A DNA stretch of 64,000 nucleotides from Candidatus Poribacteria bacterium (GCA_965222225.1 CBDCTK010000002.1:3744001-3808000), one strand, 5' to 3'. Positions 1,587 to 55,641 are shown, counted from the stretch's first letter. Notes: generated from the sequence alone by a model not told the origin. Numbers and translations are program-made.

Positions 1587-1656
1587 GATCAAGCGAGCGG
1601 ACAGCGAGCGATCAAACGACCGAACAGGGAGTGCGATAGAAGTCTTATAGAGATCC
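1587..1656 (+). repeat. Two nested GA-hairpin micro-element units
   Basis: Outer unit starts 1587; inner unit 1610-1646 inserted in its 3' arm; directly follows GTAGG. Confidence 0.85.
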
Positions 1657-1684
1657 ATCGTTATTCCCTACCCCAACTGGTCGC

Positions 1685-2389
1685 TTATCTTTTCCGTCCC
1701 ACATGAATCGCGACGATGCCAAGCGTCTTCCGATAAAACCTGACATCCTCCAGTTCCCATGAACACATTATCCGTCCCAATTCTTCACAGTCGGGAAATT
1801 GCATCACAGATTTCGGGAGATAGCCGTAAGCATCGTCTCTGTTCTTTGAGACCAGATTCCCGATAAAGGGCAGAACCTTCGTAAAGTAAAAGTAATAGAA
1901 CCCCCGAAATATCCGATTGTTCGGTTGCGTGAACTCCAAAATCACGACACGTCCGCCGCTGACAGCAACCCGCACCATCTCCCTGATCCCGCTTTCAAGG
2001 TCCGCAACATTGCGAATACCGAACCCGACGGACACCACATCAAATGTGTTTTCCGCAAAGGGGAGTGTGAGTGTATCCGCCTCAATGGGGATAAAAACCT
2101 TCGGACGGTTCTGTTTCACCACCTTCTGCTTGCCGACCGTCAGCATTTCAAAGCAGAAATCTGTCCCGATTACCCCCGCATTCGTTCCCATTTCATCGGC
2201 ATAAGCGAGCGCGAGTTCACCGGTGCCCGTGCAGACATCAAGCACCTTGCTTTCCGGCGTTACGCCGCTAGCGCGAGCGGTGAACCTCCGCCATGAACGA
2301 TCGAACCGTAGGCTCAAGAGCGAATTGAGGAAATCGTACTGCCGCGCTATGCCAGAGAAAATCTTGTGTACGTAGATTGCCTTGTTCAT
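1685..2389 (-). CDS. menG: Demethylmenaquinone/ubiquinone C-methyltransferase
   Basis: YDFLNSLLS, LDVCTGTG (SAM binding), GFGIRNV, AYGYLPKS. Confidence 0.93.
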   Translation of the reverse strand: MNKAIYVHKIFSGIARQYDFLNSLLSLRFDRSWRRFTARASGVTPESKVLDVCTGTGELALAYADEMGTNAGVIGTDFCFEMLTVGKQKVVKQNRPKVFIPIEADTLTLPFAENTFDVVSVGFGIRNVADLESGIREMVRVAVSGGRVVILEFTQPNNRIFRGFYYFYFTKVLPFIGNLVSKNRDDAYGYLPKSVMQFPDCEELGRIMCSWELEDVRFYRKTLGIVAIHVGRKR

Positions 2390-2425
2390 GACGATATTGT
2401 CGTTACAACTTACGCGGTTCGGTTG

Positions 2426-2515
2426 GTAGGAGCGATCTCCGAATCGCGACGTGCCGGGAATCGGAAGGAACCTTTATTGATCAAACGACCGAACAGAGAG
2501 TGCGATAGAGAACCC
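2426..2515 (+). repeat. GTAG-REP plus one GA-hairpin unit (2479-2515)
   Basis: GTAGGAGCGATCTCCGAATCGCG followed by GATCAAACGACCGAACAGAGAGTGCGATAG. Confidence 0.75.
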
Positions 2516-2546
2516 GGTGAAACTCAACTATTTAGCTGAAACCTAA

Positions 2547-5252: not shown

Positions 5253-6269
5253 TCAAAACTGTCGCAAAAACCGTAAATCGTTCTCATAGAGCGCGCGTAT
5301 ATCCGGAATGCCGTAGCGCAGGCTCGCGATGCGCTCAACCCCCATTCCGAACGCAAAACCGGTCACTTCATCCGGATTGTAGTTTGCATATTCGAAGACA
5401 TTCGGATCTACAGCCCCCGCGCCCAAGATCTCGAGCCACCCGGTTCCGGAGCAAGTGCGACAACCCTTGCCGCTGCAAACCGTACAGGAGATATCGACCT
5501 CCGCGCTCGGCTCCGTGAAAGGAAAGAAGTGCGGACGAAACCGCATATCGGTTTGATCGCCGAACATCTGCCGCGCAAAAGACTGGAGAACGCCTTTCAA
5601 CTCACTGAACGTTACATGATGGTCAACCAGCAACCCTTCAACTTGATGGAAGGTCGGTGTATGCGACACATCGTAGTCAAGTCGATATGCTTTACCGGGT
5701 ACAATGATCCGCACCGGCGGTTTATGTTTCTCCATGAAGCGGATTTGAACCGGTGAGGTGTGCGTTCGCAAGAGCACCTCATCCGTGATGTAGAGCGTGT
5801 CCTGCAAATCCCGTGCGGGGTGATCCGCCGGTGTGTTCAGCGCGTCAAAGTTGTAATATTCGTGTTCGATTTCCGGTCCATCGGCGACGTGGAACCCCAT
5901 CCCTCGGAAGATTTGCTGGATACGGTCAAGAATTTGCGTGATGGGGTGCTTTTTCCCCGACTGCGGACGTCTCCCTGGCAAGGTGATATCGATCGCCTCC
6001 GCCGCAAGCTGTTTCTCACGGTCTTGTTGATTTAAACTTTCGCCAACCTCTTCAAAAGCCCTCGTCAGATTCTGCCTCACCTCATTTGCCAGTTTCCCTA
6101 TAATCGGACGTTCCGCCTCGGAGAGTTTCCCCATTCCCCGCATTACGGTAGATAGCAGCCCTTTCCGTCCAAAGTATTTAATCCGAAGTTCCTCAAGATC
6201 GACTGAGTTCGTTACCGCTTTGAGTTCGTAAAGCGCTTCCGCCTCAATTTTCTTCAACTCTTCTTGCAT
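5253..6269 (-). CDS. pheS: Phenylalanyl-tRNA synthetase alpha subunit
   Basis: HPARDLQDT, LRTHTSPVQ, FPFTEPSAE, FGMGVER; ATG at 6269 chosen for its spacing to AGGAGG. Confidence 0.98.
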   Translation of the reverse strand: MQEELKKIEAEALYELKAVTNSVDLEELRIKYFGRKGLLSTVMRGMGKLSEAERPIIGKLANEVRQNLTRAFEEVGESLNQQDREKQLAAEAIDITLPGRRPQSGKKHPITQILDRIQQIFRGMGFHVADGPEIEHEYYNFDALNTPADHPARDLQDTLYITDEVLLRTHTSPVQIRFMEKHKPPVRIIVPGKAYRLDYDVSHTPTFHQVEGLLVDHHVTFSELKGVLQSFARQMFGDQTDMRFRPHFFPFTEPSAEVDISCTVCSGKGCRTCSGTGWLEILGAGAVDPNVFEYANYNPDEVTGFAFGMGVERIASLRYGIPDIRALYENDLRFLRQF

Positions 6270-6290
6270 ACTCACCTCCTGTAGCGCCGC

Positions 6291-6570
6291 AATAAAAAAC
6301 GCCTATCGCTTTCGTCCCTAGGGACGAAAGCGATAGGCGTCAACTTCCGCGGTACCACCCTAATTAACAGATTTCAAAATCTGTTCACTTCGTTGATTGG
6401 TCAATAACAGTGACCTTCCGGCGCGAGCCTACTTTGCCATCTTGACGTTCAACTCGGCGGCTCCAGGATGAAATTCGGCGATCGGTCTCGAAAATGCGCT
6501 TTCAGCCGATGACGCATCCTCCCTAGTCGAGACTCTCCAACCGCTTACTGTGTCCCTTCAAAGCCTTTAT
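6291..6570 (-). ncRNA. Phe-specific T-box riboswitch with intrinsic terminator
   Basis: Minus strand: AGTA, GGGAG...GCTGAAA stem I motifs, GAA-T-TTC specifier (TTC=Phe, 6470-6472), T-box AATTAGGGTGGTACCGCG (6348-6365), 42-nt palindrome 6299-6340 plus U run; directly upstream of pheS. Confidence 0.92.
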
Positions 6571-8043: not shown

Positions 8044-10638
8044 TCAAGCCTTTGAATGCCAGAAGGCGGCGACCAAGGCTGTCATCGGAATCGCCAACAC
8101 GAGACCAAGCGTCCCAGCCAGTAACCGCACAATCTCGGCGGCGACGACGCCCACACTCATTAGCTCGACCGGCGGAGATTGAAATAGATCCACGTTGGGC
8201 GCTGCCACTGCCAAGACTAACAACAACCGTGCTCCAAGGTAGGCAAACACCAGTGTATTGACCATTGTTCCAAGGATGTCGGTGCCCACGTTCATCCCGG
8301 AGGCGATTAGCCGCCACGTCGGGATGTTCGGGTTCGCCCGACGAATCTCCTCCATTGAGGAGGACACCTCGATTGCGCCGTCCACGGCGACTCCCAGCAC
8401 CCCCATCAACATGCCCGCAACCAGCAACTGGTTAAAGTCGAAAGGCGGCGTCCGCATGGCTTCGACAATATCCGCCGACATGGCGTTCTCCAACCCGGAA
8501 AAGTGAAGGTACTTCTGCGCGAACATGATAATCATGCCCGACACGAGAATTCCGCCCATCGTTCCCAAAACGGCGGAGAACGTCTTGCGGCTTGGTCCAA
8601 TGACAAATACAAGCGACACAAACGCAACCATGCCCGAAGTCAACGTGACGACGAAGACGGCATTGTGCCCACCCGAAATCAGGGGGAGCATGAAGAAATA
8701 GATAATGACCCCCGAGATGATCATGGCGCAGGCGGTACGTACACCTTCAATTCGCCCGACGACAATGATCAGCAGAAACATCAGTCCCACCATCAGCGCC
8801 AAAAAACCGTCGCGCCCATACTCTTGGACGATATTCACCAAGCTGATCTGATCGGGCGTGCCGCCAACACGGCAGAGTACAACATCACCCGGCGTGGCTG
8901 GAATACTCAACAGAGGCATGTTGTGATTCACAATGTTTCGCAGCATCAACCTGTGTCCCTTATACAGTCCCGACAACATCTCAATCTCAAGAATATGATG
9001 TTCCGAATTTGCCCCGTAGATGTTCAGGCTGTCTCCGATTCTTTTTACGGCGTACGTCTGTTCTCTGTCTTTGTCGGTTATTAACCACCTGCTATCCTTC
9101 CACGCTTTGATTTCGACATTCACATTTTGCGAGAGAGGGATTCCGTTGAATTCAAACTCGACTCGCAAACCATCGGGAATCTCCCGATTCTCCAGATCTT
9201 CCGTGTACTCCAACTCCGACTCAAACAGAAACCTCGCATTGGATTCAAGAAGGCTCAAGACCCTCCCCTTTGCATACTCGGACTTGGAAACGACGTTCCC
9301 ATGCTCATCGTGTTGTTCGGTGATTGTTGCGGATGTGTTATTCAGTCTGTGATAAATCACAACGGTGCAGAGCAGCACGACAATCATGGCAATTGGCACA
9401 GCGAATCGCCCCTTGCTGCCGGGTTTATCAGTTTGCAGGAGTTCCTCAAGTTCCTCGGCAGACGGAGCGTCTTCGTGAATCTCAGTCAATTCTACCTTCC
9501 TGTATTTCGTCAGGATTCCGGCAACGGTAGCCGCGATTGGAACCGTCAGCACCAAGCCTATTGTTCCCACGATAGCCTGTATAATGGCAACCGACGTTGC
9601 CTCGTCATTCGCTAACCGGAGGAAAGGGTAAAGCACGCCAACTTCGGGAAACTCGATCGTGGGTAGCAACATGGTGGTTAGGTGTGCGCCTAGGTAGGCA
9701 AAAATCAGTGTGTCCGCCATCGTGCCCATAATATCTCTACCCACGTTCAGCCCGACGCGAATGGCTTGGCGAACCGTGATATTCGGGTTGACCTGCTTCA
9801 CCTCATGCACTGACGAGGATATGGACATTCCGACATCCATCATCGCGCCGACGGCGCCAAGGATGATGCCCGCGGACAGTATACCCGCGAAATTCCAACC
9901 GTGTGAGGCCTCCGTCCGCCAGAGCGCAATACCGAGTTCCAAGAATCCAAATTCCTCTGCCAGACCGGTGAGAACCATAACTTTTTGGCTGATAATAGAA
10001 AGAATCCCGACCGCAGCCAAGCCCCCGAGCGTTCCCAAGACGCCGGAGATAACCTTGAGGCTGAATCCGGTAATGGTCACGAAGGTTACTATGGTCAAGA
10101 ACGCAGCTATGCCCAAAGCGACGGTAATCGGATTATAGCCGCGCACCATAAGAGGAACAAGGATGTAGAGCACGCTTAATCCTGTGAAAAAGAGTGTCAG
10201 GATGGCTCGTATCCCTTTCATCCCGGCGACGAGGATTATCAAAGTCCCCAGCAGCCAGGCTAGATAGAGGAGAAAAGGCGTGCGAAAGTACGCCCCCATG
10301 CGAACTTCATTGATTGTGGTTTGGTTCTGACGCCTGAGAGGGATTTCGAGAAACAGTACATCGCTTTTTTTGATCGTGCGGTCACTGAAATCGCGACCTA
10401 TCCAGACGTTGTCTACGCGGACTGTTTCCCCACGGAATTGTCCGGAGAGAATGCGAAACGTCAGAATCTGGTCTACGTTCTCACTCGTGTTCACATTGAC
10501 AACACGTCCAAGGCAAATCAATTTCCTTAAAGCGCCGTGATGCACCACCTCGGCGAACCGAAACAATTTTATATGTAATAAGACAACAATCACTGACAGT
10601 GCGAGAACGCCAATGATTTTCAAATTCTTCTCATTCAT
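8044..10638 (-). CDS. Tandem double YibE/F-family membrane protein
   Basis: Two copies of the YibE/F pattern (GAMMDVGMSISSS...GRDIMGTMADTLIFAYLG and GVAVDGAIEVSSS...GTDILGTMVNTLVFAYLG). Confidence 0.85.
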   Translation of the reverse strand: MNEKNLKIIGVLALSVIVVLLHIKLFRFAEVVHHGALRKLICLGRVVNVNTSENVDQILTFRILSGQFRGETVRVDNVWIGRDFSDRTIKKSDVLFLEIPLRRQNQTTINEVRMGAYFRTPFLLYLAWLLGTLIILVAGMKGIRAILTLFFTGLSVLYILVPLMVRGYNPITVALGIAAFLTIVTFVTITGFSLKVISGVLGTLGGLAAVGILSIISQKVMVLTGLAEEFGFLELGIALWRTEASHGWNFAGILSAGIILGAVGAMMDVGMSISSSVHEVKQVNPNITVRQAIRVGLNVGRDIMGTMADTLIFAYLGAHLTTMLLPTIEFPEVGVLYPFLRLANDEATSVAIIQAIVGTIGLVLTVPIAATVAGILTKYRKVELTEIHEDAPSAEELEELLQTDKPGSKGRFAVPIAMIVVLLCTVVIYHRLNNTSATITEQHDEHGNVVSKSEYAKGRVLSLLESNARFLFESELEYTEDLENREIPDGLRVEFEFNGIPLSQNVNVEIKAWKDSRWLITDKDREQTYAVKRIGDSLNIYGANSEHHILEIEMLSGLYKGHRLMLRNIVNHNMPLLSIPATPGDVVLCRVGGTPDQISLVNIVQEYGRDGFLALMVGLMFLLIIVVGRIEGVRTACAMIISGVIIYFFMLPLISGGHNAVFVVTLTSGMVAFVSLVFVIGPSRKTFSAVLGTMGGILVSGMIIMFAQKYLHFSGLENAMSADIVEAMRTPPFDFNQLLVAGMLMGVLGVAVDGAIEVSSSMEEIRRANPNIPTWRLIASGMNVGTDILGTMVNTLVFAYLGARLLLVLAVAAPNVDLFQSPPVELMSVGVVAAEIVRLLAGTLGLVLAIPMTALVAAFWHSKA

Positions 10639-10896
10639 TCAAGTGTTTCCTCTTGCACCGTCTTCTCAAGAATTCAACTATATCGCAACCCATCCGCACC
10701 ATTTGGAACACCGCGACTGCACCCCTCGGTGCGGCGGCCAGGTTTATAGACGAGGCACGATGCGTGTTTGCACGAAGTCTTGCTCCTTGCCGTATGATAA
10801 TTCACCTCAACCTCGCAAGTTTAATGCCTTTGGAGTCGGTTTGAAGATTTTATTCGCGACGATAGATTGCGATTGGGCGATTTTCGAGATCCGGAG

Positions 10897-11053
10897 GGAA
10901 TCTCTATCGATTAACTGAGATCAAAGGAGTGATCAAGTGACCGATTAGTGAACGCGATAGAGATCCTATAGTAAATCCCGTGCGATAGCGATCTTTGATA
11001 GCGAAGGCGGTAGAAAATCCCACTCACTATTCTTTCGTTTGATCGCTCCTACA
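10897..11053. repeat. Multi-level nest of GA-hairpin units inside a minus-strand REP
   Basis: A minus-strand unit is split (10897-10909 and 11021-11044) around about three plus-strand units; GCTCCTACA REP end at 11045-11053. Confidence 0.8.
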
Positions 11054-11242
11054 GATATCCTCTCGGGTTTGTATTTCAATCTTAGCAAACCTTCCCTATT
11101 CCCGTCAATAAAATGCGCATTTCGTTCCAGCACAATCGTCAAAACCCCAATTTCCCGTCTCATCCCCCCGATTTGCGATACGATTCCCTAGCTAGAACGA
11201 AAAAACAAACGAAAAAACAAACGAAAAATAATCCACAATTAG

Positions 11243-11271
11243 TTGACAAAATTCACAAAACTCTGTATAGT
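11243..11271 (+). promoter_or_regulatory. Sigma70-type promoter
   Basis: TTGACA-17 nt-TATAGT, preceded by about three 12-bp A-rich repeats (AACGAAAAAACA). Confidence 0.65.
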
Positions 11272-11479
11272 ACTATTTGATTTGGTGGATGTTTTTCAAT
11301 GACATACGATATCTGGATTATTAACGCGTTAGGCATGTGAAACCGTTGCTAACCGCGTATTTTAGCGTGTCGGTATACAGTATGTAATTTGTGTTTGAAT
11401 ACAATATATACTAGCATCACCCCTCGGTATTTTGTAGTTTCACCGTCCTCCCATATTAAGTATTTTTAAGAGATTTCAG

Positions 11480-12502
11480 ATGACAAAGATTCCGTTCCTC
11501 TTCATCGTTTTGTGGTTTGGCTTGCAATTGGCTCTCCCTCACTCAATTCCAGCACAATCAACTACGGCACAACCAACGAAAGATTCCGCCGAGAAGACTC
11601 AGCCTCTCGACGCCCCCGAAGAGAAACCGGCGAACGACTCGGAGCCGGATAATCAGCCATCAGAAATCGCTCGCAGTGTGGAGGCGAATCAACAGGTTGT
11701 GCAGATTGGTGGAAATTATCACCTCAGTCCCAAGGAAGCTGTCGAGAGTTTGATTGTGATTGGCGGCAATTTGACTCTTCGAGGCAAGGTCAATAACGAC
11801 GTGCTGGTTCTAAAAGGTGACGTTGAGGTGCAAGAAGGGGCAGTGGTTCTAGGCAGCGTTACCACGGTTTTAGGTGAGATTCGGGGAAAGCAGTATCTAG
11901 AGGGTATTCACAGAGAAGTTAACGGCTGGAAGTTTATCCCCGCCTCCGCATGGCTTATCATGCGACCACAGGAGGCGTGGGGAATGGGGAAGTCCGCGAA
12001 ATTTGGGTGGGGCGTGTTGGTGTTCATCGCGCTAACTTTGGTTCACATTACGGTTTATGCCGTATTCCCTCAACGGCTGAATACCATGGCACACGTAATC
12101 TCTCACCGTCCCATAGGCAGCACGCTGCTTGGATTCATAGTGATGATCGTCGCCCCTTGTCTCATAGCGGTGTTGGTGCTTTCAATAGTCGGTATCCCGT
12201 TTGTGCTGTTGTTTATCTCAATTTTGCTTCCGATAGCAATCTACGGCAAGACGGCAGTCTTCCTATCAATGGGGCAAACAATCTTTTCCAACCAACCAAA
12301 GGTTGTGGCAGTGGTTGCGGGCTATTGGATTTATTTCATGGCAACTTCTATCCCACACGTGGGTTTACCCATGTTCCTAGCCGCAAACGCCATCGCAGTC
12401 GGTATCTGTCTCAGGACGGTGTTTGGTCAGAAATCGAGACAGAGCGCCCCTCCGTTCGCTCACCGGCACCCCCTCCTCGACAAATACCGGCAGGCGGATT
12501 AA
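11480..12502 (+). CDS. Membrane protein with signal peptide, bactofilin-like beta-repeat region and C-terminal TM bundle
   Basis: VIGGNLTLRGKVNNDVLVLKGDVEVQEGAVVLGSVTTVLGEI repeats, then several hydrophobic helices. Confidence 0.65.
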   Translation: MTKIPFLFIVLWFGLQLALPHSIPAQSTTAQPTKDSAEKTQPLDAPEEKPANDSEPDNQPSEIARSVEANQQVVQIGGNYHLSPKEAVESLIVIGGNLTLRGKVNNDVLVLKGDVEVQEGAVVLGSVTTVLGEIRGKQYLEGIHREVNGWKFIPASAWLIMRPQEAWGMGKSAKFGWGVLVFIALTLVHITVYAVFPQRLNTMAHVISHRPIGSTLLGFIVMIVAPCLIAVLVLSIVGIPFVLLFISILLPIAIYGKTAVFLSMGQTIFSNQPKVVAVVAGYWIYFMATSIPHVGLPMFLAANAIAVGICLRTVFGQKSRQSAPPFAHRHPLLDKYRQAD

Positions 12503-14859: not shown

Positions 14860-15246
14860 GAGCCTGTTTGAAAAGTACAGTTTGTAGGGTGCGATCAAAC
14901 GAGTGGATAGCGAGTGCGATAGCTAATCCCGCGCGATAGAAATCCCATAGAAATCCTGCACCATTTCTTGTATGGTGCGATCAAAGGAATGAATAATGAC
15001 TGCGATAGAGATCCCCTTCGATTAAGTGACCGAATAGGGAACGCGATAGGGATCCTACCAGCCTTTGTGAGCCCCAGCGTGGGATCAAACGAGCGAATAG
15101 CGATCAAGCGACTGAATAAGGAGCGCGATAGAAATCCCGTGCGATAGAAATCCTGACAGGTGTATAGCAGGCGACCACAAAAGCATGAAAAAGCCGCACC
15201 CAAAGTGACCAAAAATCGCTTTGCCACCTATTATTCAATCAGGCTC
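14860..15246. mobile_element. MITE with IS5-family-like termini carrying five GA-hairpin units
   Basis: TIRs GAGCCTGTTTGAA / TTCAATCAGGCTC, flanks TAA/TTA; right ~190 bp homologous to the copy at 46797-47167. Confidence 0.75.
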
Positions 15247-16257: not shown

Positions 16258-16523
16258 TGTAGGAGCGATCTCCAGGTCGCGATTCCGTAGAACCAAACGT
16301 TGTAGGAGCAATCAAGCGAGTGGATAGGTCAAGCGAGCGAACAGCGACCACGATAGCAATCCCCCTCCCGGTCGCGACCCATCAACGAAGCGGATAGTAA
16401 TTATAGGGTGCGATCAAAGGAATGAATAATGACTGCGATAGAGATCCCCTGCGATCAAGCGACTGGATAAGGAGCGCGATAGCTATCCCATGCGATAGAG
16501 ATCTTAGTGCGATAGAAATTCCC
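16258..16523 (+). repeat. REP/GA-hairpin mosaic at left island border
   Basis: Two GTAG REP heads plus about five units. Confidence 0.8.
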
Positions 16524-16783
16524 TAGCCATCCTCCCCTTCCCCCCAAACCTCATTACAGACCCAACCCCATTTCCCATTGGCAATTCCCCGGCACCTATG
16601 CCATAATCTCACACTGCGACCATGTTGAACATGTTCGGATTGAATTATGAAAACAGAAACTTACTAACATTCACCGTAGGAGCCAACCATGAAGACAAAA
16701 TTTATAATATTGATATGTACACTAACTTCACTAAGGTTGAAAAATCCCTGAGCTACATGCCAAATGTAAGAGGTGGCTCTACG

Positions 16784-21341: not shown

Positions 21342-21818
21342 GCGTTGTGACGTAATCAGGCAGCGCCTTGTTAGGTGTGACGGTCGTCCCCTTCTACACC
21401 GTGACAAATTCCTACCTGTTAATGCAACGAAATACCCTCGTTCGTATATAACGGAATACTAACCAATGGTGTTGGTTTGAAATTTGGAGGTTAGTGGATA
21501 TAACAACATAATTTGGCATTGCTTGAGGGCGAAATGTGTCATGTTCATGATCCGATTTCCTTGATTCTACCGTTAATTTGAGCGTCAGTAGCTATTGATC
21601 AACAAAAGGCGATCTAGACTCATGACCATAGAAGATTTTACCAAAAAACTGTTATTTTGATGATAATCTCTCACAGCACGGCAAGAACCGTAAACATAAC
21701 CAAGCCAAACTCTAGGGAATCACCATCTATCAAAGAAACGATTAAGCGACGGATTGTGGAGGGAGATAGTAAATCTCGTGACGTACGGCCCTCGCATCAA
21801 CGCAAATCCTATAACTCG

Positions 21819-24210: not shown

Positions 24211-24257
24211 AGCCCCAGCGGGGATCAAACGAGTGAACAACGAGGGCGATAGAGTTC
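24211..24257 (+). repeat. GA-hairpin unit following a GCCCCAGCGGG mini-hairpin
   Basis: Same left context as at ~15071 and ~46995. Confidence 0.75.
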
Positions 24258-24449
24258 AGTGCGGCTCGACACATGCCGTCAGAAAGACAGAAAGGAAACA
24301 TATTGGGCATTGGAATTACCATGACTGTGAGTTTAGTTTTAAGGTTGGGTGTGGAACGAAGTGTAACAACATTCGAAATTTAGACCATCATCTTAACCAA
24401 AATTGACGTCGCTCGACTCTGCGGAACTGTCTGAGCCGGAAACACTGTG

Positions 24450-29939: not shown

Positions 29940-29942
29940 TCC

Positions 29943-30164
29943 GATCAACCGAGTGGATAATGAGCGATCAACTGAACGAATAGTGAAGGCGATAGAAAGT
30001 CCTGATAGAGATCCCTTAATCAGCGATTCAGACAATCTCCTTACCTCCCCATTTACCCCTCCCTACCCCCTGACCATCAAGCAAGCGGATAGCGATCAAC
30101 CGACTGAATAAGGAGGGATCAAGTGAGTGAATAGCGAACGCGATAGAACTCCCATGGAGATCCC
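29943..30164 (+). repeat. Nested GA-hairpin clusters (about five units)
   Basis: Units at 29943/29966 and 30076/30094/30117. Confidence 0.85.
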
Positions 30165-30223
30165 ATTCGGACAATCTCCCTCCACTTCCCACGCTCACCC
30201 CAATGTTAAAAACATATTAACAC

Positions 30224-30252
30224 TTGACAAATCCGCCCTAACATGATATAAT
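30224..30252 (+). promoter_or_regulatory. Perfect consensus sigma70 promoter with extended -10
   Basis: TTGACA (30224-29), 17 nt, TG-n-TATAAT (30247-52). Confidence 0.85.
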
Positions 30253-30400
30253 GTGCCACAGTTGCTCTTCGCAAGCATTGGCCCAAACAAGCGACGGAGC
30301 ACGACGAGCAAGCGAGCGGATAGTGAGTGCGATAGTTGATCTCTCGGGATAGTAAATCCCCCAAACACGAACCGCGCTGAACTAAATATCACAATTTTCC

Positions 30401-32804: not shown

Positions 32805-32828
32805 CGGCTACTACCCGATGTGGGAGGA

Positions 32829-33535
32829 GATCAAACGAGTGAATAGCGAGTGATCAAAGGAATGAATAATGACTGCGATAGTCAATCCTGATAGAAATTC
32901 TTTTATCTTGCCCCGATTAACCAAGCAGCCGTCAACTGACTGGACAAGGAAGGCGATTGTTGTAGGGTGCGCACTGCGCACCAGCCTTTTGTTTCTGTCG
33001 TATGATAGCACATTCCTTGCAACAGAAATCCCCGCCAACGCTTCAACCGATTTATAGTCGGGTCATCTTGCCCCGATTAACAGAGGTGCATTTAACCGAG
33101 ACTATGTGTAGGAGCGATCTCCAGGTCGCGATTCCATAAACCCAAACGTTGTAGGAACGTTCAACTGACTGAACAAGGAAGGATCAAGCGAGTGGATAAC
33201 GAGCGCGATAGAGCCCAAGGCGATAGCTGATCCCGATAGAGATCCTGCACCAGCCCTTGGTTTCTGTCGTACGATAGCAAATCCTGATAGTGAATCCCGA
33301 TACAAAATCCCGTGCGATCAAGCGACTGGATAAGGAGCGATCAACTGAGCGAATAGTGAAGGCGATAGAAACTCAGGATAGAAATTCCTCACGCGACACG
33401 TATCAGGGGATCAAAGGAATGGACAATGGCTGCGATAGAGATCCCTTAATCCGCGATTCAGACAATGCGATAGAGTCCTTATAGACGTCTTCTACCGGTC
33501 ACCGCTTCCTGTCGCGAGCAGCGCTCGCTTCTACA
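32829..33535 (+). repeat. Large REP/GA-hairpin mosaic at right island border
   Basis: About eight units, an uninterrupted REP at 32962-32986, and REP heads at 33107 and 33150. Confidence 0.85.
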
Positions 33536-33598
33536 ACTCTGTCTCGCGTCGCGAGAAATCAACTGTGTGTTGCGTCTTGCTCAAACGCATATTTTTTG

Positions 33599-33687: not shown

Positions 33688-33711
33688 TCACTTGGAAAGA
33701 TAGCAGGGACA

Positions 33712-34116: not shown

Positions 34117-34139
34117 CCGGGCGCGGAGGACGATTCGCT

Positions 34140-35322: not shown

Positions 35323-35384
35323 GTAGGGTGGGATCAAGGGAGCGAATAGCGAATAGCGACTGCGATAGAGATCCACCGCCCACC
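35323..35384 (+). repeat. REP interrupted by a GA-hairpin unit
   Basis: GTAGGGTGG[unit]CACCGCCCACC versus the uninterrupted form at 1512. Confidence 0.85.
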
Positions 35385-37490: not shown

Positions 37491-37599
37491 GTAGGGTGGG
37501 ATCAAGGGAGATCAAGCGACTGAATAAGGAGCGATCAACTGACTGGTTAAGGAAGGCGATAGTAGATCCTGATAGAAGATCCCGTGCGATAGAGATCCC
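37491..37599 (+). repeat. REP head plus triple-nested GA-hairpin units
   Basis: Three GATCAA heads followed by three GATAG tails. Confidence 0.85.
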
Positions 37600-37760
37600 G
37601 TGAAGGATGATGAGTATGAGGCATGGTTGAGCCTATCAATTCGGGGCTTGGGAGAAGCGTACGGGAAGGATGAACCGGAGTATTCTACCAACCTTATTAA
37701 AGAGGTAAACCCTCAGTATGAGGGAAGGTAATGTCATCTAGACCCCAGTTCTCTCAGATT
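37600..37760 (+). pseudogene. Toxin-antitoxin relic (short antitoxin-like ORF plus truncated PemK/MazF-like start)
   Basis: DDEYEAWLSLSIRGLGEAYGKDEPEY...NPQYEGR* overlapped by MREGNVI*TP. Confidence 0.5.
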
Positions 37761-42207: not shown

Positions 42208-42861
42208 ATGAATAAGTATTTCTTTAATATCTATAGAGCGCTCTATACGGTGCTCATCGGCATGCGCATAACGTTTAAGCAGATGTTCCAGCACGCAGTT
42301 ACGCACCAATATCCCTATGAACATCCGTTCGAGAAAAAGCGAAATGTACGCGAGATTCCCAAGGGCTATCGGGGACAACTGTTCAATCGGATTGAGGACT
42401 GTATCGGTTGCAAGAAGTGCGAAATGATCTGTCCTGTTGACTGCATCGCCATCACGACCCAAAAACTTCCCAAAGGCGAACGGCTTTGGGATAGCATGAA
42501 TGTGCTCCATCTTACGGATCGCACGGAGGTTGTCGGTTTCGTCGAAGGCGAGGAAAAGGTTGCTCCAAACACAACGGTTACCGTTAAAACTCGCGATGGG
42601 GAGACACTGACAATCCCGAGCGACGATATAAATCGTGTCGTCGAACGGAAACCTGTCATCTTCTATCTTGACAAGTTTGACATTGATATGTCGCTCTGCA
42701 TGTACTGCGGGCTTTGTACCGAGGTTTGCCCGACGGAGTGCTTGATAATGATAGATGAGATGAGGGGCATTGCGTATTCAACGTTTGACAGAATGGACTT
42801 GATATTTCCGTTCGCCAAGCCCGATATGTACGATCAAGCGAGTGATCAAGGGAGTGAATAA
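42208..42861 (+). CDS. nuoI: NADH-quinone oxidoreductase subunit I with internal insertion
   Basis: CIGCKKCEMICP and CMYCGLCTEVCP. Confidence 0.93.
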   Translation: MNKYFFNIYRALYTVLIGMRITFKQMFQHAVTHQYPYEHPFEKKRNVREIPKGYRGQLFNRIEDCIGCKKCEMICPVDCIAITTQKLPKGERLWDSMNVLHLTDRTEVVGFVEGEEKVAPNTTVTVKTRDGETLTIPSDDINRVVERKPVIFYLDKFDIDMSLCMYCGLCTEVCPTECLIMIDEMRGIAYSTFDRMDLIFPFAKPDMYDQASDQGSE

Positions 42862-43060
42862 CGACCGCGATAGAACTCCCATAGAGATCCCTCAAGCGAG
42901 TGAATAACGACCGCGATAGCTAATCCCGATAGTAACTCCCTCAAGCTACTGGAAAAGGAGCGATCAACTGAACGGATAGTGAAGGAGCAACTGACCGATA
43001 GGGAAGGCGGTAGAGATCCCATAGAAAGTCTTGATAGTGAATCCTAATAGCAAATCCCTC
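42832..43060 (+). repeat. GA-hairpin cluster (about six units) overlapping the nuoI 3' end
   Basis: Units at 42832, 42844, ~42891, ~42941, 42962 and ~42988. Confidence 0.85.
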
Positions 43061-46588: not shown

Positions 46589-46796
46589 GTGGGGAATATC
46601 TGGTTTAGAGCCTGTTTGGTCATTTGAAAGGGGCTTTTGTCGCGAGCTGGAGTTCGCTCCTACAAACCAGACACGAAGCAGAGAAGATTTCACCTTCGAT
46701 TTGATTTGATGATCAAGGTCGGTCTGGATTGCCAAATCCAGACCGACCGTCGGACTTGGCAATCCGACGGGCGCAGAGATGTGTCGGTCAGACTTA

Positions 46797-47167
46797 GAGC
46801 CTGTTTGAAAATTCATTTCGGGTAGAACTTTTGCCCTGAAACCGATCAAATGAGCGAATAGCGAATGTGATAAATGTGATAGAAATCCCTATTTTCTTGA
46901 AAACTCCGTTTCTTTCTTGCGCAATCCCGTAGGGTGCGATCAAAGGAATGAATAATGACTGCGATAGAGATCCCCTGCGCACCAGCCTTTGTGAGCCCCA
47001 GCGGGGATCAAGCAAGTGGATAACGATCGAGCGACTGAATAAGGAGCGCGATAGAAATCCCGTGCGATTAGGAATCCTATAGGTGTATAGCAGGCGACCA
47101 CAAAAGCATGAAAAAGCCGCGCCCAAGGTGACCGAAATTGCTTTGCCACCTATTTTCAAGCAGGCTC
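46797..47167. mobile_element. Second MITE copy with TTA target duplication
   Basis: TTA|GAGCCTGTTTGAAAAT ... ATTTTCAAGCAGGCTC|TTA; an extra orphan left end TTA|GAGCCTGTTTG at 46608. Confidence 0.8.
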
Positions 47168-53053: not shown

Positions 53054-53159
53054 TTTAGGAATCAAGCTGGCGATGGACGGAATGCGAGAATTGCCGGGAG
53101 TCAAGTCAGGCTAGCGGAATTGCGTAGTTAATCTCACAGAATCAGTTTTGCGAGGGTAA

Positions 53160-53807
53160 TTACGCATTGACTGCCCATTCCAACGGCTCGTTTTGCAGAT
53201 AAGGGCGTAAGAGGGTTTGGAGGCGGCGGTGCGCATGATGAAGATGTGCCTTGATTGTTCCTTCGGACCTATCCAACCGAGCGGCAATCTCTTTTAGTTG
53301 GAGACCTTCATGATAACGAAGATTAAAGACCCGTTGTTGCCCCGGGGGAAGCTGGCTAACCGCTTTGCCTATAATTTGACCGAGTTCGCTTGATTCCGCT
53401 TGGTCCGGCGGACGTGGTCTTGAATCGTTGAAAATGAGTTCGTTTTCGGCGATTGTCGGGTTCAAATCATCAAACGATACGGTTCGCTTTCGGTTTTGTT
53501 GACGAATAAAGTCAATACAACGATTGATTGCGATCCGATAGATCCAGCTATAGAATGCCGATTCCTGCTTAAAATTGGGTAGGGCTTGGTACGCTTTGAT
53601 GAATATCTCTTGACAAAGGTCTTTGGCAGTCTCGGGATTGGACACGTGTTTATAAACCAAACTGTAGATTCTGCCTTGGTATCGGACGATCAATTCATTG
53701 AAGACACTCCGCTCGCCGCACTGGAATCGGTCAATAAGTGCGTACTCGTCGATAGGATTTGGATCCAACGGTAAATCGACCACGGATATACGATTGGAAT
53801 TAGCCAC
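53160..53807 (-). CDS. ECF RNA polymerase sigma factor
   Basis: DLCQEIFIKAY, FYSWIYRIAIN, EIAARLDRSEGTIKAHLHHA. Confidence 0.93.
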   Translation of the reverse strand: MANSNRISVVDLPLDPNPIDEYALIDRFQCGERSVFNELIVRYQGRIYSLVYKHVSNPETAKDLCQEIFIKAYQALPNFKQESAFYSWIYRIAINRCIDFIRQQNRKRTVSFDDLNPTIAENELIFNDSRPRPPDQAESSELGQIIGKAVSQLPPGQQRVFNLRYHEGLQLKEIAARLDRSEGTIKAHLHHAHRRLQTLLRPYLQNEPLEWAVNA

Positions 53808-54065
53808 TTTTTTGCTCCCTAATACCGGTCAAATCCCCTGATTGTCGAGTTTTCGAACAAGTTCGTTGGTCAACAGATGTCCCCTAATTGAACACCTAGA
53901 TCGAACAATCGTTCCGAAATTCGGAACAATTATAGGCACTCAGAGGTAGGGTTGAATGCACGAGCTCCCGTAATGAAGTAACTTTGCGGCTTTCCAATAT
54001 ATTGCCCATCAATCCGATTCCCTTCCGGCACGAATCTTGCCATTCGAGTTGTTTTGACATGTCCC

Positions 54066-55442
54066 ATGCCTCGATATAGCATTCAGAACAAAATTGTCTT
54101 GCCATTCCTGGTACTTTTCATCGCCGTTCTCCTCGTTGTTCCGCTTATCACCATTGCCCTCTTCGATCAAACATACAATAGGCAGTTCAGCCGTGAAACC
54201 GAGGGATGGTTAAAGGTCATTAAAACCACGGGTTACGTCGTAATGCCAGAGCAAGTTCAACAAGCGTACGGCGTGGAAGTCATGGTCTTCGGCGCAAGCA
54301 ACGCTTTGAACTTCACCACACTCGACGACTTGTCGGATGACGGTATGGTTAATTTGACAACCGATATGAAATTGCGGGCAGCCCGACAGAAGATTACGGA
54401 ATCGGGCGACGCGCTGGTGTCGCAAAACGTCGTTCTTGATGGCAAGCCCTATAAGGTCATCTATGACTCCCTGGCACAGGGACGGCTGTATTGCTTGCTC
54501 CGACCGATGGACGACATAGCGGAAGGGAAGCGCCGACTGACGTGGTTGATTTCGGGAATCGCCGTCGTTGTCATTTCATTAGTTGCGCTTACCAGCCATT
54601 TAATTGGGCGAAATCTCTCAAATCCGATCAAAATTTTGGTGCAATTTACACGTCAGGTCGCCGAGGGCAGGCTGGATGGCCAGTGCAACGTGAAAAGCGA
54701 CGATGAAATCGGTGACTTAACCACCGCCTTCAATCAAATGACTCGCGACTTGCGAGATTCACGGAACGAACTTATCCGCGCCGAGCGGCTTGCCACCGCT
54801 GGAAGAATGGCGGCGTCGTTTGCACACGAAATACGGAATCCGTTGTCCTCTATGCGGATGTTAGCCCAAATGTTGATGCAGAGGAAAGATTTACCGGTCT
54901 CAAAGCGCGAACAGTCGGTAGGCTATATCCTTGAAGAGATAGAACGGATCGATGTCATCGTGAGAGGATTTATGAATTTTGCCCGGCCGGCAGCGCTTGA
55001 ACTTGAAACGCACAATCTCAACCAAGCGCTTGAAGAAGTACTCAATGTTATGGGAGCGAACTTAAATCATCACCAGATCACGCTTGTCAAGAAATTTGAA
55101 TCGGAACTCCCTCCAATTCGGTTTGATCGGGACAAAGTGAAACAGGGGTTCATGAACATCGTGCTGAATGCGATGGAGGCAATGTCAGAGGGCGGTACCG
55201 TGGAGGTAGAGACCTCACGCCATGACAACCGTGTTCAAGTTGATGTGGTTGACCCCGGAACTGGCATCGCCTCCAAGGATTTGGAGCAACTGTTTGAACC
55301 GTTTTTCACGACCAAGCTGCAGGGATCAGGACTTGGACTGGCGAACACAAAGCGGATTCTGGAGCAACACGGCGGAGGAGTGACCATCCAAAGTTCAGAG
55401 GGGAAGGGGACGAGAGTGTCTTTTTGGTTGCCTTTAACGTAA
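54066..55442 (+). CDS. HAMP-domain sensor histidine kinase
   Basis: Two TMs, DEIGDLTTAFNQM, AHEIRNPL, NAMEA, FEPFFTTK, GLGL. Confidence 0.95.
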   Translation: MPRYSIQNKIVLPFLVLFIAVLLVVPLITIALFDQTYNRQFSRETEGWLKVIKTTGYVVMPEQVQQAYGVEVMVFGASNALNFTTLDDLSDDGMVNLTTDMKLRAARQKITESGDALVSQNVVLDGKPYKVIYDSLAQGRLYCLLRPMDDIAEGKRRLTWLISGIAVVVISLVALTSHLIGRNLSNPIKILVQFTRQVAEGRLDGQCNVKSDDEIGDLTTAFNQMTRDLRDSRNELIRAERLATAGRMAASFAHEIRNPLSSMRMLAQMLMQRKDLPVSKREQSVGYILEEIERIDVIVRGFMNFARPAALELETHNLNQALEEVLNVMGANLNHHQITLVKKFESELPPIRFDRDKVKQGFMNIVLNAMEAMSEGGTVEVETSRHDNRVQVDVVDPGTGIASKDLEQLFEPFFTTKLQGSGLGLANTKRILEQHGGGVTIQSSEGKGTRVSFWLPLT

Positions 55443-55542
55443 AGGCGATCTCGTGCCGGTTATAGCCATTGTAACTAAGAATTATACATACAGGATTTAC
55501 GCAGTTCGGCTGTATAGTGAAATCCAACGTTCCAACCCAACT

Positions 55543-55641
55543 GAAGCGAGCGAATAGCGAGTAGGATTTTCTATCGCGTTGGGATCTCTGTAGGATCTCT
55601 ATCGCGGCCGCTATCCACTCAGTTGATCGTTCCCTTGATCC
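55543..55641. repeat. GA-hairpin cluster with rare minus-strand units
   Basis: Partial plus-strand unit followed by GGATCTCTATCGC...TTGATC reverse copies. Confidence 0.75.

Follow-up and report, generated by a model that had tools for sequence, protein, structure and literature searches.

An apparently undescribed REP-like intergenic repeat with a non-canonical co-varying hairpin in sponge-symbiotic Poribacteria

The window, the whole 64-kb stretch of DNA analysed here, comes from a Candidatus Poribacteria MAG (G000), a sponge symbiont, and carries between its genes a short repeat whose variable bases change in complementary pairs. This raises the question of what kind of element keeps a shape rather than a sequence. 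The repeated unit is real and is apparently an undescribed REP/BIME-like element of unusual non-canonical architecture. Our preferred reading, held with moderate confidence, is that it is a REP-like, non-autonomous micro-element acting as single-stranded DNA.

Results

Copies of the unit in the window

The conserved core comprises 30 nt, G-ATC-AA-NN-GA-NN-G-RAY-A-NN-GA-NN-GC-GAT-AG, which as written forms three very short helices (ATC/GAT, NN/NN, and NN/NN). Between the helices lie two fixed 2x2 loops rich in purines, AA/GC and GA/GA, and a G-RAY-A loop forms the cap. The tail that follows is lineage specific (ARATCCC in the genus of the host and TCTT... in the other genus). A search of the window with pattern GATCAANNGANNGRAYANNGANNGCGATAG, allowing ≤3 mismatches, returned 27 matches (25 on the + strand and 2 on the - strand) and none in 100 dinucleotide-preserving shuffles of the window. 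A covariance model built from 106 copies gave 39 hits at E≤1; for 29 of these (27 on + and 2 on -), E was ≤4e-6. With some eight chained, 3'-truncated units recognized by eye, the total reaches ~37 to 45 copies in 14 intergenic clusters spread over positions 1587 to 55634 (Table 1), close to the ~45 copies in ~15 clusters reported in the first-pass annotation. Its examples of complementary outer (aa/a'a') and inner (bb/b'b') dinucleotides (1610, 14979, 15102, 29966, 30094, 33182, and 42844) all read as claimed, as did its mismatch examples at 2479 and 24223.

Table 1. Clusters of the unit in the window (numbers are positions in the window; single numbers are unit starts)
Cluster	Positions	Strand	Units	3'-truncated chained units, by eye	Remarks
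1	1587..1652	+	1610-1639 (full unit; 58.7 bits)	1587 (23 nt)	Truncated unit abuts GTAGG head 1582-1586; tail of full unit degenerate
2	2473..2521	+	Lone unit (49.9 bits)		One inner pair broken (C11.A19)
3	10891..11050	.	10931-10960 (+), tail to tail with 11015-11044 (-)		Solo tails between; orthologous spacer of 8 congeners has differing repeat content
4	14887..15150	+	14893, 14979, 15020, 15102	15078 (19 nt)	Several solo GCGATAG-ARATCC tails; halves of second REP family on both sides (GCCCCAGCGTGG ... TGACAGGTGTATAG)
5	16321..16528	+	16327, 16412, 16453		Weak hit at 16494
6	21734..21782	+	Degenerate weak copy		Covariance model, 17.9 bits, E 0.0018
7	24217..24265	+	Lone unit		One outer pair broken (A7.G23)
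8	29944..30348	+	Chains 29944/29966 and 30071/30094/30117; separate unit 30306	29944, 30071, 30094	
9	32830..33451	+	Chained pairs 32830/32852, 33160/33182, 33316/33339; units 32930, 33409	32830, 33160, 33316	Many solo tails; GTAG REP copies interleaved
10	35326..35381	+	One unit (45.9 bits)		Covariance model only
11	37527..37605	+	37533		Weak neighbour
12	42838..43026	+	42844, 42890, 42979		42844 overlaps end of crude ORF 42208-42861
13	46838..47067	+	46844, 46938, 47025		
14	55546..55634	-	55599-55628 (-)		Between convergent ORFs; weak + fragment

Covariation and conservation of the fold

Covariation was analysed in 1,087 copies from the entire genome, 668 of them distinct. The bases at pairs 7-23, 8-22, 11-19, and 12-18 were Watson-Crick or G.T partners in 93 to 96% of the copies. 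Mutual information was 0.41 to 1.15 bits at these four pairs versus ≤0.13 bits at any non-partner variable pair, and, over the whole span from -12 to +48, it was restricted to the former. All four pairs were intact in 887 copies, versus 125 expected with the partners shuffled, and ~40 stem haplotypes were populated. A second set comprised 106 copies drawn from the window plus 13 public assemblies; here, 97.1% of the cells were paired, versus 77.3% after shuffling, and controls with slid partners gave 17 to 47%; the covariation score was 0.611 versus 0.206 for shuffled partners, and none of 500 shuffles reached 0.611. The mismatches G9.A21 and A10.G20 and the loop closure G13..A17 were retained in 1,007, 1,035, and 1,040 of the 1,087 copies, respectively, and the basal pairs A2-T28, T3-A27, and C4-G26 in 1,012 to 1,059 each; conservation of the GA/GA and AA/GC mismatches was 92 to 95%. 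The co-varying hairpin, its near-invariant GA/GA loop, G..A closure, and ATC/GAT base, and selection on the shape had all been proposed in the first-pass annotation, together with a covariance model and covariation test as a check, and each holds in these data. The haplotypes and the shuffle and slide controls thus support the conclusion that the conserved feature of the unit is its shape, not its stem sequence. The tandem G.A pairs are putatively of the sheared form, a structural reading. At the four variable pairs, G.T combinations far outnumbered A.C combinations (474 versus 82), indicating that one named strand folds.

Abundance and taxonomic distribution

Extraction of all genomic matches, an analysis also proposed earlier, gave ~1,350 to 1,800 copies in the host genome, or 1.09% of the chromosome. 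At ≤1 mismatch there were 1,350 copies, versus 8 in a Markov control, and an identical 30-mer was common to 45 copies. The units form 649 clusters, 313 of which are singletons, and only 48 of 1,347 units lie inside ORFs of at least 200 aa, though such ORFs span 72.8% of the chromosome. Short-read assemblies break at unit sites.

In a survey of 121 Poribacteria genomes from 19 genera, the unit was abundant only in two non-sister genera, g1 (617 to 1,325 copies in 8/8 genomes) and g3 (197 to 211 copies in 4/4 genomes); the other 109 genomes contained 0 to 5 copies each.

Orientation and GC skew

The orientation of the units was correlated with GC skew over 50 to 100 kb (r = -0.35) and not with gene-strand bias (r = 0.03 to 0.10). 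The folding strand lay on the C-rich strand for 913 of 1,347 units (68%; 413/597 by cluster vote). This bias persisted within every gene-orientation class and in the 424 units lacking GTAGG within 120 nt (66%); it was also displayed by the GTAG REPs of the same genome (74% for REP1 and 62% for REP2). The GC skew of the chromosome is patchy, and inside the window, at the 8-kb scale, it flips sign while the units stay on the + strand. Since orientation follows GC skew and not transcription, these data favor action of the unit as single-stranded DNA rather than RNA.

With the strand assigned by GC skew only, the folding strand is enriched on the leading-strand template. This bias is opposite to that predicted for insertion of the IS608 type, whose orientation rule, as given in the sections of PMC6006769 on that element, is the reverse, so that an extra assumption, survivorship, is needed. 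A precedent is provided by the attC sites of sedentary integrons, for which the excerpted text of PMC5371416 assigns the folding strand to the leading-strand template for 25 of 30 arrays.

Chains, nesting, and turnover

Head-to-tail chains with a 23-nt period (138 cases in the host genome) are accompanied by 31 doublets whose two units face each other tail to tail at a constant offset of 37 nt. Of 1,121 array-first units, 374 have GTAG in the 22 nt upstream, with peaks at -10, -9, and -17; one third of the arrays begin 5 to 17 nt behind a GTAG head, and two thirds are without GTAG. Canonical GTAG REPs and members of a second REP family also harbor nested units, in their loop or arm. The REP1 hairpin was found empty in 72 cases and with a 38-nt filling at one common point in 13; filled REP1 is short by 2 nt, and the 3' joints with host REPs are of several differing kinds. 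Clean insertions into host REPs were not seen, the joints being heterogeneous, and a search for a consistent duplication at the junctions found none. Strict unit counts at one orthologous spacer of nine congeners were 2, 0, 2, 1, 0, 0, 0, 2, and 0, indicating turnover. The unit is physically interwoven with the REPs of the genome and is not a free-standing new class. It also has the same strand bias as those REPs.

Y1/HUH genes

Matches to the Y1/HUH transposase family number five in the host genome, namely, three open genes, a pseudogene, and a remnant; one further remnant brings the total to six loci, and at four of them inverted units stand on both sides. As the annotation had noted, no mobilizing enzyme is encoded in the window, the nearest Y1 match ending ~16 kb upstream. 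The single intact IS200-like gene, P0001 (C2:3080255-3080728), scores above the NCBIfam IS200 cut-off (65.8 versus 55 bits), and its nearest solved relatives are the TnpA proteins of ISDra2 and IS608 (E 5e-6 to 3e-3). It is flanked by inverted hairpins, not by co-oriented ones. The REP of P0001 itself has GCGAYAG directly 3' of the stem, as in the unit: the flanks of its orthologues contain a 5-bp hairpin followed by GCGA(C/A/T)AGGT (27/30 upstream and 24/30 downstream), with the heptamer in the position of the unit's GCGATAG. Only 5 of 4,492 crude genes, P0001 among them, are flanked by tails-in units within 150 nt; within 250 nt there are 11, including an antisense ORF over the RAYT pseudogene. 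Inverted units likewise bracket a Y1 remnant (C2:3560325-3560519) and a RAYT remnant (C2:1545570-1545977). The same inverted unit follows the Y1 remnant at C2:3560325-3560519 and two decayed 3' ends of P0001-like genes, to which that remnant is unrelated, near C2:3946500 and 3625900. The Y1 loci examined in other g1 and g3 genomes have units on either side. The P0001 orthologues of g3 are without an adjacent unit, indicating that part of the adjacency in g1 is inherited and not independent.

Genes of the P0001 type occur in 76 of the 121 genomes (10/12 repeat-rich and 66/109 repeat-poor) and were not found in the repeat-rich genomes G021 and G038. RAYTs of the Y1c type occur in 66 genomes (9/12 repeat-rich versus 57/109 repeat-poor), those of the L205 type, likewise widespread, in 60, and Y1b in 4. 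None of these four lineages follows the g1-plus-g3 pattern of the repeat in the 121 genomes, and the four g3 genomes, with ~200 copies each, share no single Y1 lineage. Of the pattern proposed earlier, a Y1 or RAYT gene flanked by the motif and co-occurring with it, flanking units were seen at four of six loci, and co-occurrence was not seen for the lineages examined. From the flanks, we infer that the unit is recognized by an HUH/Y1 enzyme, the first candidate being P0001 and the second the classical RAYTs.

Comparison with known systems

No description of the unit was found in the literature searched, and no Rfam family matches any unit. The sole Rfam hit in the window at gathering thresholds was a T-box (6317-6570), and an E-value scan of positions 29900 to 33500 gave no hit on any unit.

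The unit is closest to the REPs, BIMEs, and REPINs of E. coli and Pseudomonas, which are accompanied by RAYT (TnpA-REP) Y1 transposases and are short (20 to 40 nt) imperfect extragenic hairpins present in hundreds to thousands of copies, with mosaic clusters and compensatory stem changes; canonical GTAG REPs and RAYT genes stand beside it in the same genome. Like REPs in general, it is a short imperfect palindrome, extragenic, and present in tens to thousands of copies. Compensatory changes in REPIN hairpins have been described (PMC3116915, in part), and Y1 genes of RAYT systems are bracketed by inverted copies, with several families per genome, according to the relevant section of PMC6006769. 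The same paper defines the canonical REP by a 5' GT[AG]G tetranucleotide 0 to 2 nt from the hairpin foot. The unit has no GT[AG]G at its foot, GTAG being found 5 to 17 nt upstream and in one third of the arrays only, and it thus lacks the canonical REP signature. REP stems are GC rich and 7 to 20 bp long, whereas the stem of the unit consists of 2- to 3-bp helices broken by fixed purine mismatches. Canonical REPs also have one cognate full-length RAYT gene, which bears the same REP inverted at its flanks and is distributed together with it; for the unit, no single RAYT could be singled out as cognate. In REPINs, two inverted REPs at fixed spacing are the dominant replicative unit; here the inverted doublet is not dominant (31 versus 138 head-to-tail cases).

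MITEs, which usually exceed 100 bp, share their terminal inverted repeats with a parent DDE transposon and have a target-site duplication. The unit is 23 to 37 nt long, its sole symmetry is GGGATC/GATCCC, which is 6 nt long and confined to some copies, and it has no consistent duplication; it was not retained as a MITE. PATE-like elements derived from IS200/IS605 have co-oriented left and right subterminal hairpins and cleavage tetranucleotides paired to guide bases. The unit resembles IS200/IS605 members (IS608 and ISDra2) in its irregular hairpin, which in those elements is single-stranded DNA whose shape a Y1 HUH enzyme reads in a replication-coupled manner, but units are not the ends of a gene-carrying IS. 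Integron attC sites, which are 57 to 141 nt long, border gene cassettes, and are substrates of a tyrosine recombinase, similarly conserve structure over sequence, fold from one strand, and owe strand choice to unpaired features; the units flank no cassettes.

The small dispersed repeats (SDR) of Nostocaceae, reportedly the subject of Elhai et al. 2008 (Genome Res 18:1484), are another likeness. They are very small (20 to 30 nt), nest within each other and within a further short palindrome, and are restricted to a single lineage. They belong to another phylum. The comparison concerns behaviour (nesting and small size) alone, and the unit differs in its conserved tandem G.A architecture and skew-linked orientation. 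We know of no enzyme for SDRs. SDR5 is said, in the part of PMC5861425 that treats it, to insert at HIP1 (GCGATCGC).

Discussion

In the mechanism that we propose, a Y1/HUH enzyme provided in trans would recognize and cleave the unit by its irregular shape together with the fixed GATCAA (5') and GCGATAG (3'). Its substrate for cutting and rejoining would be the folded strand, rather than a protein-bound duplex, when this strand is exposed in replication. Cutting and rejoining could generate the 23-nt head-to-tail chains, insertions beside G(C/G)G in other REP hairpins, and the turnover between species. Only copies able to fold would be copied, so that stems would drift by compensatory change and the mismatches would stay. 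If this reading holds, the concept of a REP-type substrate is widened: a hairpin held mostly by non-canonical purine pairs, with helices of 2 to 3 bp, yet reaching >1,000 copies per genome. The ~40 stem variants with fixed mismatches then constitute a natural experiment on shape recognition by Y1/HUH or another reader. The REP/BIME ecosystem of uncultivated sponge symbionts is dense and turns over fast; it includes no fewer than four repeat families and three Y1 lineages and may drive the formation of rearranged, patchy-skew chromosomes such as this one. The leading-strand-template bias common to the units and GTAG REPs of this genome leads to a testable statement on how replication shapes the survival of folded-DNA elements.

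A bolder version, which we regard as rather unlikely, is that the 23-nt module GATCAA-NN-GA-NN-GRAYA-NN-GA-NN is itself mobile, a REP "hyper-parasite" that two or more Y1 enzymes move, or that rides in their REPs, and that spreads horizontally. It would then be among the smallest mobile DNAs known, landing beside G(C/G)G in loops or arms of several unrelated REP families; the tandem-G.A fold would be a shape signal not yet seen in HUH substrates, and the two non-sister genera would reflect horizontal spread among co-resident sponge symbionts.

Turning from mobility to function, the unit could be a structural DNA site kept by the host, comparable to gyrase- or IHF-binding BIMEs or to a polar signal for replication or segregation, whose extruded or duplex form is read by a host protein and whose fold is kept by selection locus by locus. 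The very high occupancy (649 clusters), the strict exclusion from long ORFs, the polarity linked to GC skew, and the persistence of ~200 copies in each of four g3 genomes sharing no single Y1 lineage would all suit such a site. We nevertheless consider it unlikely. Positions are not conserved among congeners at the one orthologous spacer examined, and polarity is only 68%, whereas that of known polar signals is far higher. Beyond the few copies noted above, searches of 109 of the 121 genomes of the phylum did not find the family, indicating that no conserved host function requires it, and the chains, truncated units, and nesting in other repeats resemble proliferation.

An RNA element, in which transcribed units fold with tandem G.A pairs and a GNRNA-like loop as a protein-binding, processing, or stabilizing motif in untranslated regions or small RNAs, is very unlikely, although G.U-type wobbles are tolerated and contigs from an RNA library, in which DNA carry-over is possible, contain units. 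RNA parameters returned the covariation structure as the minimum-energy fold for two of four sense strands and the greater part of it for one more, and did not return it for the complement strands; energies were no better than those of shuffles in three of the four units. Standard DNA parameters gave no fold of the unit (0 to -1.9 kcal/mol in three of four units, z near 0), a point against the single-stranded DNA reading. Orientation to flanking genes is nearly random (289 of 513 units co-oriented in tandem-gene spacers, 56%), the residual co-orientation within each skew class being small (8 to 16 points), and arrays are found between divergent, convergent, and tandem genes alike. GC skew as the main determinant of orientation and the lack of an Rfam match also argue against RNA.

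Single-stranded DNA processed by an enzyme, the reading that we prefer, may finally be compared with enzyme-free spread, in which slippage, template switching, and gene conversion act among hairpin-prone repeats and compensatory pairs come from intra-hairpin mismatch correction. Tandem chains at 19, 23, and 25 nt, tail arrays at 13 and 17 nt, mosaic junctions with several differing joints, and orientation concordance peaking at short range (85% at <100 nt versus 69% at 1 to 3 kb) point in that direction. This explanation is highly doubtful, since microhomology is least at the 23-nt junction, the commonest of all (138 cases), and the junction with the longest, 5-nt homology is rare (5 cases), hairpin-templated correction would erase the conserved GA/GA and AA/GC mismatches too, and 649 separate clusters in the host genome and two non-sister genera exceed the reach of local slippage.

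Abundance and intergenic location of the repeat

The pattern GATCAANNGANNGRAYANNGANNGCGATAG, with up to 3 mismatches, has 27 matches in the 64-kb window, 25 on the + strand and 2 on the − strand, versus 0 matches in 100 of 100 dinucleotide-preserving shuffles. A covariance model trained on 106 copies (window plus 13 public assemblies) revealed 29 matches at E values of ≤4e-6 and 39 at ≤1. Together with chained and truncated units recognized by eye, these matches bring the total to roughly 37 to 45 copies in 14 intergenic clusters, in agreement with the first-pass annotation, which had counted about 45 copies in about 15 clusters.

The source genome (5.70 Mb, two contigs, 50% G+C) contains 1,087 matches to the full pattern, including 556 exact ones. 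The 22-nt core ATCAANNGANNGRAYANNGANN was detected 855, 1,350, and 1,792 times at 0, 1, and 2 mismatches, respectively, versus 0, 8, and 182 times in a first-order Markov control. Units and their 15-nt tails occupy 61,556 bases, or 1.09% of the chromosome. Only 48 of 1,347 units lie inside ORFs of ≥200 aa, although such ORFs span 72.8% of the chromosome. Statistics on orientation and flanks were based on greedy longest-ORF calls, not on an annotation, and crude ORFs that cross arrays in antisense were taken as spurious. Two + strand arrays of the window leave the − strand open (see the table), and genome-wide the orientation was antisense for 194 of the 264 units lying "inside" crude ORFs; spurious proteins across unit arrays may be reported by ORF callers.

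A hairpin with covarying stem pairs and fixed G.A positions

The position matrix of the unit reads (G/C)-G-A-T-C-A-A-NN-G-A-NN-G-R-A-Y-A-NN-G-A-NN-G-C-G-A-T-A-G followed by A-R-A-T-C-C-C. With positions numbered from G1 of the unit, Watson-Crick or G.T pairs were found at 7-23, 8-22, 11-19, and 12-18 in 93.7%, 92.9%, 95.2%, and 95.6% of the 1,087 copies, with mutual information of 0.76, 0.94, 1.15, and 0.41 bits, respectively. All other pairs of variable positions remained at ≤0.13 bits (668 distinct sequences), and a scan from −12 to +48 revealed no covariation beyond the four pairs. This restriction to pairs indicates that the signal is base pairing rather than a handful of subfamilies. Some 40 haplotypes of the left arm are well populated, and 45 copies share the most frequent 30-mer. 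All four variable pairs are intact in 887 copies versus 125 expected under partner shuffling, confirming the covarying stem that the first-pass annotation had described around nearly invariant G.A pairs and a nearly invariant loop closure. In the 106-copy set, paired cells amounted to 97.1% versus 77.3% after shuffling, and the covariation score was 0.611 versus 0.206, a value reached in 0 of 500 shuffles; sliding the partners gave 17 to 47% pairing.

Conservation is highest at positions that do not pair, with G9.A21, A10.G20, and G13..A17 kept in 1,007, 1,035, and 1,040 of the 1,087 copies, respectively, and A5/C25 and A6/G24 in about 1,000. Wobbles such as G7.T23 (259 copies) and T12.G18 (147 copies) contribute to a sum of 474 G.T versus 82 A.C combinations over the four pairs, indicating that the strand as written is the folding strand. 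T is excluded at positions 7 and 11 and A at position 8, and position 12 is exclusively Y. The resulting context around GA is mostly 5'-Y-GA-R-3', a context where tandem G.A pairs take the sheared form, as they may do in the unit. Energy folding placed the left arm of a single unit, that at 42844, onto its tail; tail-stem pairing was rejected as a general feature, since the genome-wide mutual-information scan was devoid of tail-stem covariation. Energy models gave the fold only modest backing. RNA parameters returned the covariation structure as the minimum-energy fold of two of four sense strands and most of it in a third, with energies of −2.7 to −6.7 kcal/mol and z scores near 0. Under DNA parameters, three of four units stayed essentially unfolded. 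Both parameter sets may leave G.A stacking uncredited, and the fold could require a protein.

Distribution among Poribacteria

When one genome per species was scanned, at least 125 loci were detected, all of them, among the matches listed, in Candidatus Poribacteria MAGs (13 assemblies). An assembly artifact was rejected on this basis, since these public assemblies were obtained by differing methods. In a comparison of 121 Poribacteria genomes, the exact core was present in 617 to 1,325 copies per genome in 8 of 8 genomes of genus g1, in 197 to 211 copies in 4 of 4 genomes of genus g3, in 5 copies in the sole genome of genus g2, and in 0 to 4 copies in the remaining 108; the reversed pattern gave 0 to 1 match per genome. 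Genera g1 and g3 belong to separate families, and the repeat is missing from the other genera of both. Loci of three assemblies having 4.7- to 4.9-Mb chromosomes carry the tail TCTT... instead of ARATCCC. The tail thus differs by lineage, and the conserved element is the 30-nt GATCAA...GCGATAG.

A phage origin was rejected, as viral contigs gave 0 matches to the pattern. The search of Rfam proposed in the first-pass annotation returned no family matching the units, and a published description was not found in the literature on Poribacteria repeats, RAYTs, or REPs, or by unit sequence. The repeat is real, abundant, structurally unusual, and apparently undescribed.

Tails and nesting in other repeats

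The tail motif GATAG-N2-4-(A/T)TC(C/T) occurs 1,859 times, 689 of which were placed directly behind a hairpin by pattern, and is also arrayed on its own at 13- and 17-nt periods. Of 1,121 array-first units, 374 have a GTAG at most 22 nt upstream, versus 59 for an equal downstream window, with peaks at −10 (134 units), −9 (66 units), and −17 (54 units). Three further hairpin families, two of them canonical GTAG REPs, are listed in the table. REP1 is "empty" 72 times and carries a 38-nt filling (ATCAA...GCGATAGARATCCCCT) at the same loop point 13 times, and units split the right arm of the third family in 20 places. Since the 3' joints vary, the unit fillings of host repeats are not all clean insertions. 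Short-read contigs (one RNA run and three DNA-type runs were compared) break at unit arrays, and the joints in these contigs are cross-mappings between repeat copies, not insertion polymorphism. The 5-bp stem of the third family covaries between genera (GCCCC/GGGGC, GCACC/GGTGC, GCTCC/GGAGC, and GTCCC/GGGAC). Readings of the arrays as attC-like or CRISPR-like were rejected by eye, with neither cassettes nor spacer arrays being seen.

Repeat families, Y1 loci, and other features (C2, chromosome of the source genome, G000; G021, another Poribacteria genome)
Feature	Location	Strand	Description
REP1	G000		Canonical GTAG REP, GTAGGGTGCGCACTGCGCACC; 155 copies at ≤2 mismatches
REP2	G000		Canonical GTAG REP, GTAGGAGCGATCTCC...TCGCGAC; 127 copies
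Third hairpin family	G000		AAGCCCCAGMGGGGCGAYAGGTGTATAG; 52 copies
GTAG-REP examples	window 32960-32990, 33110-33135
P0001	C2:3080255-3080728		IS200-like Y1 gene, 157 aa; best PF01797 match
RAYT pseudogene	C2:3088877-3089350		Classical, one TAG; inverted REP2 copies on flanks, units inside those
RAYT remnant	C2:1545570-1545977		Units heads-in at 56 and 18 nt
Unrelated Y1 remnant	C2:3560325-3560519		Followed by inverted unit
L204	G021:C1:3320444-3323779		Fourth Y1 type, HYHILV motif, 207-aa open frame
Open frames opposite + arrays	window 14895-15227, 46794-47159	−	Open for 110-121 codons
Orthologous spacer	window 10849-11131		Between conserved syntenic genes
Multicopy ORF	window 31008-32804	+	598 aa
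Paralogues of multicopy ORF	C2:4167557-4170285, C2:59583-61214		Examples; G000 paralogues, 76-87% DNA identity
T-box leader	window 6317-6570	−	93.5 bits versus Rfam gathering 93
ORF downstream of T-box leader	window 5253-6275	−	Crude call, 340 aa
Inverted repeat	window 30387-30465		Long, near perfect, ending in T run

Y1 genes as candidate enzymes

Y1_Tnp (PF01797) matched five places in the source genome. P0001, present as a sole intact copy, passed the NCBIfam IS200 model (65.8 versus 55 bits) and failed the REP-transposase model (30.6 versus 80 bits); among solved structures, the ISDra2 and IS608 TnpA proteins are closest to it. Units flank P0001 at 24 and 115 nt with their tails toward the gene, and such tails-in flanking within 150 nt was found for 5 of 4,492 crude genes, including P0001. 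The same inverted unit also lies behind two decayed P0001-like 3' ends and behind the unrelated Y1 remnant. The first-pass annotation had proposed looking for a Y1 or RAYT gene flanked by the motif and co-occurring with it. Inverted units were indeed found at P0001 and at the RAYT remnant, but no Y1 lineage tested tracks the repeat in the 121 genomes.

Orthologues of P0001 are flanked in all genera by the third REP family and not by units: of 30 loci, 27 have this family upstream, 24 have an inverted copy of it downstream, and 22 have both. In genus g1, a unit lies merely within the downstream third-family copy (3 of 6 orthologues), and no unit adjoins the P0001 orthologues of genus g3. P0001-type genes are present in 10 of the 12 repeat-rich genomes (g1 and g3) versus 66 of the 109 repeat-poor ones, and the Y1c-type RAYT in 9 of 12 versus 57 of 109. 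The L205-type RAYT was found in 60 of 121 genomes, weak cross-matches included, and a single Y1 lineage common to the four g3 genomes was not found. The phyletic patterns of the Y1 lineages do not discriminate among candidate enzymes. The Y1b protein (247 aa) was rejected as the cognate enzyme since it has no units nearby and is present in 4 of 121 genomes. The third-family hairpin is followed by GCGA(C/A/T)AGGT, whose heptamer agrees with the GCGATAG of the unit in both sequence and placement, and this sequence match hints at one specific link of the unit to P0001. P0001 is the first candidate and the RAYTs are the second.

Poribacteria contain at least three widespread Y1/HUH lineages (IS200-like, 76 of 121 genomes; RAYT types, 66 and 60 of 121), mostly with 1 to 4 Y1 copies per genome, many of which are fragments or have in-frame stops. 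This looks like a rich, unexplored REP/RAYT system. Behind the Y1 gene of L204 lie several copies of another, AT-rich hairpin repeat, AAACCGAGTTTTTTCTTCAAAACTCGGTTTC, which was also found in the orthologue, in genome G122, of the window spacer at 10.9 kb.

Orientation of the units relative to GC skew

Units are co-oriented with genes in 289 of 513 cases in tandem-gene spacers, and divergent- and convergent-gene spacers also hold units. Unit orientation varies by region, and same-strand concordance between units is 85% below 100 nt, 63% at 10 to 30 kb, and 53% at 100 to 300 kb. In 50- to 100-kb windows with units masked, unit orientation correlated with GC skew (r = −0.35) and not with gene-strand bias (r = 0.03 to 0.10), the latter being positively correlated with GC skew (r = 0.28 to 0.40). 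The folding strand is on the C-rich strand for 913 of 1,347 units (68%) and in a cluster vote of 413 of 597. This bias persists within every gene-orientation class. In spacers between two + genes, + majorities were found in 37% at positive skew and 80% at negative skew; between two − genes, the values were 29% and 64%. The bias was 66% for units without GTAGG within 120 nt (n = 424), 74% for REP1, and weaker (62%) for REP2. An excess of G over C usually marks the leading strand. If this holds for this patchy skew, the folding strand is preferentially on the leading-strand template. A parallel is known from sedentary chromosomal integrons, in which the strand of the attC sites that folds was the leading-strand template in 25 of 30 arrays (PMC5371416).

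The cumulative GC skew of C2 has many turning points, not one maximum and one minimum, a pattern suggestive of recurrent large inversions or of a mosaic assembly. The repeats change orientation together with these turns. Inside the window, at the 8-kb scale, the skew changes sign and the units stay on the + strand.

Origin of the repeat

We lean toward regarding the unit as a REP-like single-stranded DNA element processed in trans by a Y1/HUH enzyme. The noncanonical fold would be the recognition shape for the enzyme, and proliferation would filter for copies able to fold, which would lead to compensatory drift of the stem with fixed mismatches. The unit behaves like REP/BIME elements, although it lacks the GTAG at the stem foot and the long GC stem of the canonical REP definition, and its organization is unlike that of REPINs. 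Small dispersed repeats of Nostoc appear similar in size and nesting. The unit is inside the REP/Y1 world, not outside it.

Structural DNA sites kept by the host are a rather unlikely alternative. The orthologous spacer of the window was compared in nine species of the genus, in which its flanks are 77 to 88% identical. Strict unit contents were 2, 0, 2, 1, 0, 0, 0, 2, and 0; the REP families filling the spacer vary with the species, and several species show degenerate units. This variation indicates that, at this one locus, units are not conserved cis-elements at fixed places. Synteny was analyzed at 9600-12400 because the multicopy ORF, whose matches were paralogues, made 28800-34200 unusable. 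Several paralogues of this ORF are present per genome in congeners.

An RNA element appears improbable. Six RNA runs contain parts of the region and units were seen in RNA-library contigs, in which DNA carry-over is possible.

Enzyme-free slippage or gene conversion has a similarly small probability. Units are modular and do form chains: the spacing of same-strand neighbors is 23 nt in 138 instances, 19 nt in another 54, and 25 nt in a further 5. Inverted neighbors meeting tail to tail at an offset of 37 nt were counted 31 times. Microhomology is lowest at the most frequent type of chain junction, which argues for a defined process over slippage. Of the 54 chains with 19-nt spacing, 49 have a 3' arm that pairs with the downstream unit. 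This arm is owned by the downstream unit, indicating that the upstream unit is truncated, not interrupted, and nested insertion was rejected for these chains.

Other features of the window

The T-box leader scored just at the Rfam threshold and is followed on the same strand by a crude ORF; T-box leaders in Poribacteria may be noteworthy. A weak Rfam mir-515 match on both strands of the inverted repeat was considered spurious. This inverted repeat looks like an intrinsic terminator.
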